This document shows positions 1,403 to 3,624 of a stretch of 64,000 bases of DNA, piece after piece. Location: assembly GCA_963783375.1 (NCBI GenBank), contig CAWANH010000029.1, positions 928,001-992,000 on the forward strand, in the 5' to 3' direction. The notes beneath the pieces were generated by a model. It did not search any database. It was not told the origin of the DNA and saw only the letters and a program-made list of their open reading frames with translations. Both the position numbers and the translations under genes were made by a program. This DNA is from Candidatus Eiseniibacteriota bacterium. Lineage in GTDB: Bacteria; Eisenbacteria; RBG-16-71-46; JABDJR01. Each line of letters begins with the position of its first letter. Within the stretch, counting starts at the first letter, position 1.

Positions 1403-1649
1403 CGAAAGCCTCCTTGAAGAGGACCGTTCCCATCGCCTGGTGGACCGACCTTCGGCGGCGCTTCGCCCGGGAACCTGGGCGATCTCTCACACTCAGGGGG
1501 GATTCGCCCCAGAACATCCGAGGACCGTGGTGCCGCCCCGCAGCGGACACTCCCGCCGAATTGGCTGTCGCTTGGCCCGTTGGCGTCGGGTGGACCCCCA
1601 CGGGCCCCGCCGCCCGCACCCCGGACCGGCACCGATGGACTCCAGAAGA

Positions 1650-1665
1650 TGCAAAGCCCGGACCA
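1650..1665 (-). promoter_or_regulatory. Putative sigma54 (-24/-12) promoter for the pilin
   Basis: Minus strand TGGTCCGGGCTTTGCA = GG-N10-GC, ~250 bp upstream of the pilin ATG; pilins are often RpoN-dependent. Confidence 0.5.
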
Positions 1666-1750
1666 ACCGGGTCGGATTCGGACTCCAAGGCGGCGGGCCG
1701 GGCCACATCGGAGTCGGGCCGCGCCAGAGGAGGAGATAGGGAGGAAAGAA

Positions 1751-1828
1751 TGGTGTCCCCAACGGGATTTGAACCCGTGTCGCCAGCGTGAAAGGCTGGT
1801 GTCCTAGACCAGACTAGACGATGGGGAC
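1751..1828 (-). tRNA. tRNA-Glu (TTC)
   Basis: GTCCCCATCGTCTAG...CCAGC-CTTTCAC-GCTGG...GGTTCAAATCC...GGGGACACCA cloverleaf with encoded CCA. Confidence 0.97.
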
Positions 1829-1890
1829 CCGAATCGAGGCCGCTCCGACGTCCAAGCCGCGTCGGAGGCGCAGGCAAAAACCGGTCGCAG

Positions 1891-1920
1891 AAGGTACCAG
1901 GATACAAAGTCGAGGGTCAA
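1891..1920 (-). promoter_or_regulatory. Putative sigma70 promoter of tRNA-Glu
   Basis: TTGACC-N18-TACCTT with TG extension. Confidence 0.45.
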
Positions 1921-2023
1921 CCGGCGCCCACGACCCGCGGGCGCCTCCGCGTCCCTGCCGTCCCCGCATCACAATATCCAACAGGCTTGCGCTGTGTGCG
2001 AGAAACGCCGGGGAGAACCGCTG

Positions 2024-2054
2024 AAAAAAAAAGGCCGGGGGGTGATCCCCGGCC
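2024..2054 (-). terminator. Rho-independent terminator
   Basis: GGCCGGGG/CCCCGGCC hairpin followed by T9 on the minus strand. Confidence 0.85.
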
Positions 2055-2229
2055 CCGCCTCAAGCTGGAGCCGGGCGTAGGCACCCGGCTGGAGGGCAAC
2101 CAGCCTGAAGACTGATTCGTGCTCTAGGGCACGACCTCTTGACAAGGGTAACCGGCCAGTCCCACGAGGGATGAGCAAGGGCCGCGTCTGAGCGCAGCCA
2201 GCTTACACAGGGACACAGCCAAGCCACCG
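2024..2229 (-). ncRNA. Unassigned structured ncRNA (~200 nt; 6S-sized)
   Basis: Bounded by extended -10 (TGGTATAAT) and terminator; closing helix AAGCTGG/CCAGCTT, inner helix GGGACTGG/TCAGTCTT and several hairpins; no credible ORF. Confidence 0.6.
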
Positions 2230-2235
2230 AGCATC

Positions 2236-2263
2236 ATTATACCAGCCCCCCCCCCGCCGTCAC
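2236..2263 (-). promoter_or_regulatory. Sigma70 promoter for the ncRNA
   Basis: GTGACG-N16-TATAAT with TG extension (spacer contains a G run). Confidence 0.65.
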
Positions 2264-2276
2264 CCAAAATTTCCGC

Positions 2277-2888
2277 TTACTGGAGACGCCGGACAAGCCC
2301 AACCACTTTTCCAACAATTTTCAGATCTTTCGGATTCCTCACCACGATGGGGTCCATGGTCTGGTTGGCCGGAAGAAGCCGAACCCTATCTGCTTTCTTT
2401 TCAAAGCGTTTGACGGTCGCCTCGTCCTCGATCATCGCGACCACGATGTCCCCGTTGACTGCCTGCTCCTGGGGCCGGACCACGATGTAGTCTCCGGGGC
2501 AGATGTGTTCCTCGATCATGCTCTCACCCTGGACCTCCAGCAGGAAGTTCCCGTCTCCGCGGAGGAGGGAGGCGTCCAGGGTGAGCCGCTCGGCGATGTT
2601 CTCCACCGCGAGAAGGGGCGCCCCGGCGGCAATCCTCCCCACCAGGGGGACGCTCTGGCCGGAGGCGCTGGGCCGACTTCCGATGATCTCGATTCCCCTG
2701 GACCGGTCGCGGGTCCGGGCGATGAACCCCTTCCGCTCGAGGGCCAGGAGATGGTCCGAGGCGGCCCGGGTGCTCCTCATCCCAAACTCGGAGCAGATCT
2801 CGCGGAGGGTGGGGGGGTACCCGTGCTCCTCCAGATGGCGGGCCAGGTAGTCGAAAATCTCCTGCTGTCGGGCGGTCAGGCGTTGCAT
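2277..2888 (-). CDS. lexA: SOS repressor LexA
   Basis: LTARQQEIF..GYPPTLREI wHTH, cleavage site IAAG-AP, catalytic GESM and TVKR. Confidence 0.97.
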   Translation of the reverse strand: MQRLTARQQEIFDYLARHLEEHGYPPTLREICSEFGMRSTRAASDHLLALERKGFIARTRDRSRGIEIIGSRPSASGQSVPLVGRIAAGAPLLAVENIAERLTLDASLLRGDGNFLLEVQGESMIEEHICPGDYIVVRPQEQAVNGDIVVAMIEDEATVKRFEKKADRVRLLPANQTMDPIVVRNPKDLKIVGKVVGLVRRLQ

Positions 2889-3394
2889 GGGGTGCCTCCC
2901 AGAAGGGTCCGGGTCACGAGGTCGGGGGAGAACAGGTCCCCTTGGCGATCCCGCCACCTCGCCCTCTCCTCGACCGAATCTAATGCACGACCGGCCGCGG
3001 GGCCAGCATTCTTGCTCGCTTTGGCCATTGATCCCCGCACCGCGTCCTTCACGTCCGTCTGGGCCGACACGCCCGGGGAGGCGGCCGCCGGTGGAGCGGG
3101 AGCGGCTTTCGGGACCCGCCCGACGGCCAGGGCCAGGAGAAAGCTCCTGGGCCAGAGATCTCCGGCCTCGGTGGCCACCGCGGGTCCCAGGGCGACCGCC
3201 CGGCGAAGAAGTCCGAGCCGTCGCTCCTGAACGAACTCGCTCCACTCGTCGGCGAACCGCCGCAGACGCTCCGCGCGAATCCGGCGGGGCACGCTGCGAC
3301 ATGCCTTCTGGAGCTCCCCCACCAGGACCCGCCGTAGCGCGTACGCCTCCTGACGGGATCGGACTTCAGACCATTCCCTGTTCACCGCGATCAT
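2876..3394 (-). CDS. Hypothetical protein coupled to lexA, with QGDLF motif
   Basis: AAAGGGGG RBS before ATG, stop codon overlaps the lexA 5' end, helical N-terminus, QGDLF near C-terminus. Confidence 0.6.
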   Translation of the reverse strand: MIAVNREWSEVRSRQEAYALRRVLVGELQKACRSVPRRIRAERLRRFADEWSEFVQERRLGLLRRAVALGPAVATEAGDLWPRSFLLALAVGRVPKAAPAPPAAASPGVSAQTDVKDAVRGSMAKASKNAGPAAGRALDSVEERARWRDRQGDLFSPDLVTRTLLGGTPCNA

Positions 3395-3624
3395 GGTCGC
3401 CCCCTTTGACGGCGGGCCGCTCGCCCGCCCATCCGCGTTGGTTGACGGGTTGTCCGGGCCGCGCCCCGCCGCTGCGGCGCCGGCCCGGAACCCCGTCGTT
3501 TGCCTGCCGCGCCCCGTGGGCGCGGTCTCAAGAACAGCCCGGTCAAGGTCGGCTTCGCCCGCCTCACCCGACTTTCCCCGTCTTTTAGAGAGGACAGACA
3601 CCTTGCCGGGCTCAATCCGTTTGC

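Follow-up and report, generated by a model that had tools for sequence, protein, structure and literature searches.

The stretch that follows lexA in an uncultured member of the Eisenbacteria raises the question of whether a unit of about 200 nt, free of open reading frames, is a gene for a structured RNA and, if so, to which family that RNA belongs and on what it acts. We have analysed this unit within its window, by which we mean the whole 64,000-nt stretch of DNA (G000:C29:928001-992000), and in relatives of the source genome, G000, which is 4.7 Mb in size, 97% complete and 69% GC. The genes of interest are all on the minus strand, in the order ABC-F ATPase, an orphan gene referred to here as gene X, lexA, the small RNA and tRNA-Glu(TTC) (Table 1). 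A type IV pilin-like gene is located just downstream of tRNA-Glu, at 968-1402 on the same strand.

Table 1. Positions of the features discussed, numbered from the first letter of the window
Feature	Position	Strand	Remarks
tRNA-Glu(TTC)	1754..1828	-	own promoter-like site at ~1891-1920
Small RNA, ~205 nt	2024..2229	-	5' end predicted from the position of the -10 element
Intrinsic terminator	2024..2054	-	hairpin 2033-2054, nine T at 2024-2032
Arm 3	2058..2110	-	11-bp stem, 9-nt bulge, 7-bp stem and variable loop; 98.7% and 98.0% of cells paired
C-rich, anti-Shine-Dalgarno-like bulge, predicted seed	2091..2099	-	invariant in 14/14; lies within an invariant 15-mer, 2089-2103
Arm 2, small hairpin	2117..2134	-	87.5% of cells paired, two pairs with two-sided changes
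Arm 1, variable 5' arm with inner hairpin	2147..2228	-	inner hairpin with two-sided changes in 7/8 pairs
Second C-rich conserved motif, in arm 1	2166..2177	-	partly unpaired; in 9/13 copies examined
Sigma70-type promoter of the RNA	2236..2263	-	-35 at 2258-2263, extended -10 at 2236-2244
lexA	2277..2888	-	TIGR00498, 238 bits; start overlaps the gene X stop
Gene X, 172-aa orphan, predicted target	2876..3394	-	helical N-terminal domain, C-terminal QxDLF-like motif
Gene X ribosome-binding site and start	3394..3404	-	complementary to the seed region, 11 bp including two G-U in the window
Conserved hairpin of the X-lexA leader	3537..3611	-	compensatory changes across lineages; capped by repeat motif 3567-3582

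A transcription unit between lexA and tRNA-Glu

The original prediction of an ORF-less unit with its own promoter and terminator is borne out; both elements are found on the minus strand and both are conserved among the copies of the unit. The unit itself starts near 2229, and 2236-2263 is the promoter. This is the sole promoter-like site in 1500-3500 (shuffle mean 0.1), and its extended -10 core is invariant in all 13 aligned copies. Terminator-like sites by themselves are not rare in the region (shuffle mean 1.6); the whole terminator hairpin, loop included, is invariant in 14/14 aligned copies, and the invariance of its 6-nt loop (2041-2046) is unaccounted for by any reading that we considered. 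The unit folds with a z score of -3.95, and none of 200 shuffles folds as well. A sense-strand open reading frame with a ribosome-binding site is seen in none of the 13 copies. The possibility of a hidden peptide was rejected, a conserved reading frame with a ribosome-binding site being absent from both strands.

The small RNA is present at 16 loci in total, in each case directly after lexA. In a BLAST search of 61 genomes, five relatives (G001-G004 and G006) had the RNA in full, and in G005 the contig stops within it. Of the 21 metagenome matches to a 20-nt pattern, nine are true copies, among which two are identical over the RNA and a third is nearly identical. The next gene is tRNA-Glu in 13 of the 16 loci, and the contigs of the remaining three end too early. 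When a covariance model, R2, was run against 151 of the 206 genomes of the class, the six full copies scored 112-139 bits and the cut copy 37 bits, with everything else at 27 bits or below. In an eighth genome of the family, G007, which is 75% complete, the RNA is absent and so is lexA. A wider search of 185,579 species genomes, with both motifs required to be exact, returned 88 matches, of which five are true copies and 83 are chance. Among the genomes searched, the RNA is found only in one family of uncultured Eisenbacteria.

Seven sister-lineage genomes have a promoter and tRNA-Glu immediately after lexA, with no RNA between them; the RNA sits within an older lexA-tRNA-Glu junction. Gene X and a motif in the X-lexA leader have the same distribution as the RNA, in family f1. 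The RNA and gene X were probably gained once, so that their co-occurrence counts as a single event. Carriage by phages found no support: the terminator pattern has no match in phage sequences, none of the 80 seed-pattern matches scored with R2 (out of 101) exceeds 16 bits, and relatives of gene X were not found in phages. An origin of the RNA from the neighbouring tRNA-Glu was also considered and rejected, since this tRNA ranks between 12 and 31 of 56 tRNAs in seven copies. Another family of the class (loci L165, L167, L169 and L171-L173) has, downstream of lexA, a conserved motif whose sequence is different and, after it, a small conserved gene; this motif suggests a second operator type within the class.

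Overall structure of the RNA

Comparison of the regions downstream of lexA in relatives, the check proposed for this unit, reveals a conserved, covarying fold. Across six genomes the full fold has 94.2% of cells paired and 11 pairs changed on both sides (0/500 shuffles), and its 3' part, across 14 copies, has 96.8% paired and five such pairs (2/500 shuffles), shuffle counts that are inflated by kinship among the copies; when the partners are slid, pairing drops to 33-53%. The fold comprises three arms followed by the terminator. Arm 1 is the least constant, being swapped for a different or shorter hairpin in two lineages. The bulge in arm 3 is C-rich, ends in an anti-Shine-Dalgarno (anti-SD) core and is fully unpaired in prediction, with an opening cost of 0-0.2 kcal/mol in 11 of 13 copies and of at most 1.4 kcal/mol.

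The architecture differs from that read from a single sequence, which was of a multibranched domain shut by a closing helix with a second helix nested inside it. The proposed closing helix (2198-2204/2062-2068) has 71% of cells paired and no two-sided change in the six genomes, and the 6-pair part of the nested helix is only 69% paired in the same set. Three of the four hairpins that were proposed hold (2182-2197, 2117-2134 and ~2071-2088), the first with 5/5 pairs changed on both sides, but the local hairpin at 2087-2105 loses one pair in 8/14 copies and has no covariation signal; its 5' strand pairs instead with 2058-2068. Since the closing and nested helices are not conserved and the 2087-2105 strand pairs elsewhere, the consensus is a row of separate arms and a terminator rather than a closed domain.

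Conservation, synteny and covariation thus support the prediction of a structured non-coding RNA gene, and we conclude that the gene is real in sequence terms, having a conserved promoter, a conserved terminator and a covarying fold.

Relationship to known RNA families

The RNA has no family match in Rfam, where only tRNAs reach a gathering score in the window. The absence of signal recognition particle, tmRNA and RNase P signatures from the unit, as first noted, is confirmed; the window is unmatched by these families, each of which is found elsewhere in the genome.

Identification of the unit as a divergent 6S RNA, one of the two assignments offered originally, is refuted. The genome has a canonical 6S RNA between zapA and ymdB (L055:1227-1407 on the minus strand, G000:C29:533224-533404), which scores 80 bits against a cut-off of 46.4 in a direct cmscan of the zapA locus, and 6S is also present at the zapA loci of five of seven relatives. 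A whole-genome search for 6S-Flavo was blank, and the whole-genome family search missed the RF00013 6S, a false negative that makes the results for Hfq and CsrA from the same search soft as well. That the unit might be a second, divergent 6S RNA is barely credible: the two share a length of ~200 nt and differ in locus and fold, the closing stem and central bubble being absent from the consensus fold, and RF00013 finds no match in 1700-2700 at E up to 10.

Weak matches of 22-25 bits to the Rfam families MmgR/suhB, SorX and SorY extend over the 3' 60-90 nt of the RNA, far under the gathering scores of 41-111 bits. The likeness consists of a C-rich stretch and a GC terminator, and in the two alignments shown it rests largely on the terminator. 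Sponge RNAs of the CsrB/RsmZ type differ in that they have repeated GGA loop motifs, which the RNA lacks, its loops and bulges being C-rich. Neither CsrA (PF02599) nor Hfq was found in G000, 97% complete, by a search method that missed 6S there.

No small RNA from the Eisenbacteria was found in the literature searched, nor any description of this one, the scope of the search stopping short of subscription journals and the supplements of motif surveys. The other assignment, a new RNA class, claims too much. The RNA is an uncatalogued new family, and its properties agree with a mechanism already described, in which an anti-SD seed mediates antisense pairing.

A predicted seed complementary to the start of gene X

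The complementarity between the RNA and gene X amounts to 6-14 nt at the ribosome-binding site of X. When five relatives were searched for a start codon preceded by a perfect complement of the bulge, 32 sites came up. One of them, located in G001 at 500 nt upstream of the lexA gene, proved to be the X start; no other shared target is present among 30 of the 32. As X is a neighbour of the RNA, the burden of multiple testing is small.

The strength of this pairing was compared with that at the starts of G000, a null set drawn from that genome alone by a simple home-made gene caller, which missed X itself. Four X starts from three lineages (G001, G003, L053 and L044, the last of these chosen next to the match and all X start codons having been placed by hand) pair better than all 3730 G000 starts, and that of the window is in the top 1%. 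Five of the 13 fall at 8-14%, and three pair poorly (21st, 37th and 72nd percentile) though the seed is identical. The six-base core site occurs at 10/13 X starts as against 154/3729 of the G000 starts, and the predicted net energy of interaction between the RNA and the X start is -6.8 to -15.1 kcal/mol in 11 of 13 cases. In one lineage the start of X may lie five codons upstream of the position used.

Specific pairing was separated from plain Shine-Dalgarno (SD) pairing by a rank test in which the 5-nt anti-SD core was held fixed and the remainder varied. Averaged over the X starts of six lineages, which were grouped by eye without a tree, the actual 4-nt extension comes second of 256, counting itself, and first of the 96 with equal GC; the actual 7-nt extension comes first of 1200 sampled. 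These ranks hold when the discovery lineage (G000 and G001) is left out. The control starts give null ranks (156/256 for lexA, 109/256 for recA), and on this basis lexA's own start was rejected as a target. Pairing of arm 3 with the hairpin in the X leader was likewise rejected, the cognate combination ranking 78 of 120 permutations in five lineages and the pairing being absent in cofolding.

The RNA and its predicted target cannot show compensatory change, as the seed is constant in all copies. The seed is identical even where X pairs poorly, which suggests that something else must also hold it constant. An anti-SD seed pairs with many mRNAs.

Gene X and its leader

Gene X precedes lexA at each of the 13 loci with enough sequence to show it, the other three of the 16 being cut, and in the copies that were checked its stop overlaps the lexA start or falls within ~20 nt of it. 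Within the class it is found in 7/206 genomes, all of the family that has the RNA, with three further matches at E 0.005-0.009. The X proteins are arginine-rich and 100-173 aa long, and that of the window has no credible match in Pfam, NCBIfam, PADLOC, PDB or Atlas. A family of 39 representatives was collected at E up to 1e-10; 32 of these have a QxDLF-like motif in their last 60 residues, which we take to resemble the beta-clamp-binding motif, and X is a probable sliding-clamp-binding protein. More distant X-like proteins, P0041-P0046, are shorter (93-136 aa) and lack the C-terminal motif.

The N-terminal domain is helical in the predicted structure, with pLDDT >85 for residues 11-90. One possibility considered for X is that it is a remnant of DnaE. 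Chains of the polymerase III alpha type account for five of its top 13 fold matches, the best match (Z 6.5, rmsd 5.1, 96 aligned) being under the level that counts for helical models, and Foldseek gave no match with the X model. In two sister genomes, G008 and G033, a gene that reads as DnaE-like in translation is located upstream of lexA, in the place of X; a profile comparison of X with the G008 gene gave a probability of 0.2%.

The leader upstream of X contains a promoter-like site and a conserved hairpin that has no Rfam match and could itself be a cis-regulatory RNA. The leader motif is near-invariant in 12 of 13 loci, the 13th of which may be cut, and is present in seven genomes of the family as against one of the other 199. 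The repeat motif that caps the hairpin has a period of about 10 bp. Related repeats are conserved after the recA promoter (recA loci L368-L374) and are seen near genes of G006 that read in translation as ssb- and dinG-like, and a 14-mer of the motif occurs four times exactly in G000, where ~0.06 would be expected by a hand estimate from base composition. The motif was not seen upstream of ssb, dinB, uvrA, uvrB or recN in G000, or at the RNA's own promoter. Sites besides the one in the window are at L352 and L354 and at G000:C3:79795, C28:198616 and C17:70197. One copy of the 14-mer is just after the promoter of an HNH gene and another is before a similar gene; at G000:C28:198900-200100, tandem units of ~280 bp, visible as repeated ORF translations, lie beside an HNH-like gene. 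We regard the repeat motif as a candidate new operator of the family, for LexA or another regulator and possibly an SOS operator, and one that is common to the lexA and recA leaders. LexA control of the X-lexA operon is plausible, and X is probably induced by DNA damage.

Proposed function and alternative explanations

The seed analysis suggests that the RNA is linked to the SOS operon by antisense pairing to the first gene of that operon. Our preferred reading, to which we incline although only just, is that the RNA is an antisense brake on X, similar to IstR-1 and NfeR1, and perhaps also on lexA. The RNA would be made from its own, LexA-independent promoter, and the exposed bulge of arm 3 would pair over the SD sequence and start codon of X, blocking initiation. 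A threshold would thereby be set, so that strong induction of the operon would be needed for translation of X; induction would then outrun the RNA and X would be released. Pairing may also affect LexA output, given that in most copies the end of X overlaps the start of lexA or almost touches it, and by lowering LexA it could tune the SOS response. Other mRNAs with a strong SD sequence are possible secondary targets.

That last point is carried furthest in the reading that the RNA is a general, multi-target anti-SD small RNA of the NfeR1/AbcR kind with two C-rich seeds, X being a minor target or a passenger. This would account for the invariance of the seed where X pairs poorly and for the second C-rich motif in arm 1, yet the part of the main seed that lies outside the anti-SD core is tuned to X and no further shared target emerged among the 30 loci, and we consider it unlikely. 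The arm 1 motif does fit the start of a zapB-like gene, in the top 0-7% in 6/6 genomes with a placeable start (of eight loci), but this gene had been selected for the best fit among 3729 starts, and its relatives share that start by descent; the fit is therefore weak and the zapB-like gene is a lead only. It encodes a coiled-coil protein and precedes zapA (L055:1813-2148, minus strand), and its match to Pfam ZapB, at E 7e-4, is below the cut-off. Very unlikely, in our judgement, is a role in binding a protein or the ribosome, as a sponge, a scaffold or a mimic of the 16S 3' end, in which case the conserved bulge and the terminator loop would be sites for a protein and the fit to X a by-product. 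The stem and loop of the terminator are invariant beyond the needs of termination, the bulge and the loop are each similar to a segment at the 3' tail of the genome's 16S sequence, and Hfq was not found; CsrA was not found either, however, repeated purine-rich loop motifs are absent, and the seed's specific fit to X would be unexpected. NfeR1, moreover, is reported to pair through anti-SD sequences without Hfq (PMC10746234).

The position of the RNA before a tRNA gene also allows it to be read as a cis-acting leader or attenuator, riboswitch-like, for read-through into tRNA-Glu. The layout of promoter, structured RNA, terminator and tRNA is conserved, with tRNA-Glu next in 13/16 loci, and a similar promoter drives the tRNA directly in the sister lineages. 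In most spacers inspected, however, a second promoter-like site precedes the tRNA, the spacer varies from 89 to 463 nt, conserved antiterminator pairing was not seen and all predicted folds contain the terminator, all of which makes this reading highly improbable.

A bolder extension of the preferred reading, the antisense brake on X, is quite unlikely as a whole. It envisages a lineage-specific SOS checkpoint module around lexA, in which X, a helical DnaE-like piece with a clamp-binding tail, would jam or titrate the sliding clamp after DNA damage, and in which the RNA would be the antitoxin of X, would tune LexA by translational coupling and would silence the zapB-like division gene through its second seed. 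If true, this would amount to a type I-like system whose toxin targets the replisome, with the RNA as a link between SOS and cell division.

The antisense brake itself, if correct, would mean that the X-lexA operon itself is under an added layer of control by RNA, in a genome in which no Hfq was found, and that X, an SOS-associated protein with a clamp-motif tail, is something that the cell must keep silent. The covarying structure, the invariant exposed seed and the specific predicted target make the RNA testable in Escherichia coli, without culture of its host.

Comparison with known antisense systems

Two groups of bacterial antisense RNAs invite comparison. NfeR1 of Sinorhizobium is described as an Hfq-independent RNA of several hairpins with ultraconserved, unpaired C-rich anti-SD seeds in variable stems, which silences the autorepressed ntrBC operon by pairing at the start of a gene upstream of the repressor (PMC10746234). 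The RNA described here resembles NfeR1/alpha-r14 in having a conserved C-rich seed, predicted to be unpaired, amid variable stems, and resembles NfeR1/AbcR, at the level of sequence, in being a stand-alone non-coding unit with a promoter and an intrinsic terminator. It has one bulged seed in a long stem and a different second motif, whereas NfeR1/alpha-r14 has three identical anti-SD loops according to the same account (PMC10746234), and it differs further in showing no sequence or Rfam match, in belonging to a different phylum and in adjoining its predicted target.

The SOS-linked type I systems of E. coli, IstR-1/tisB and AgrB/dinQ, share with this locus a neighbouring small RNA that has its own promoter and a block, predicted in our case, to the translation of an SOS gene whose leader is long and structured (PMC4147584); in the first of them an RNA that is not damage-induced checks a LexA-controlled gene (PMC4147584). 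The present RNA differs in being co-oriented with its predicted target, with lexA between them, and X is a helical protein of 100-173 aa with a clamp-motif-like tail rather than a short hydrophobic peptide. The stretch that pairs is also shorter, at 6-14 nt over the X ribosome-binding site compared with the 21 nt reported by that source for the standby site in IstR-1/tisB (PMC4147584). With respect to type I toxin-antitoxin systems in general, X lies ~1.2 kb upstream of the RNA on the same strand, the pairing is predicted, and X is not a small hydrophobic toxin, usually of <60 aa. By analogy, then, the RNA appears to work in the way that NfeR1 and IstR-1 do, but it is a member of neither group: it is not homologous to them, it is laid out differently, and its predicted target is something other than a hydrophobic peptide.
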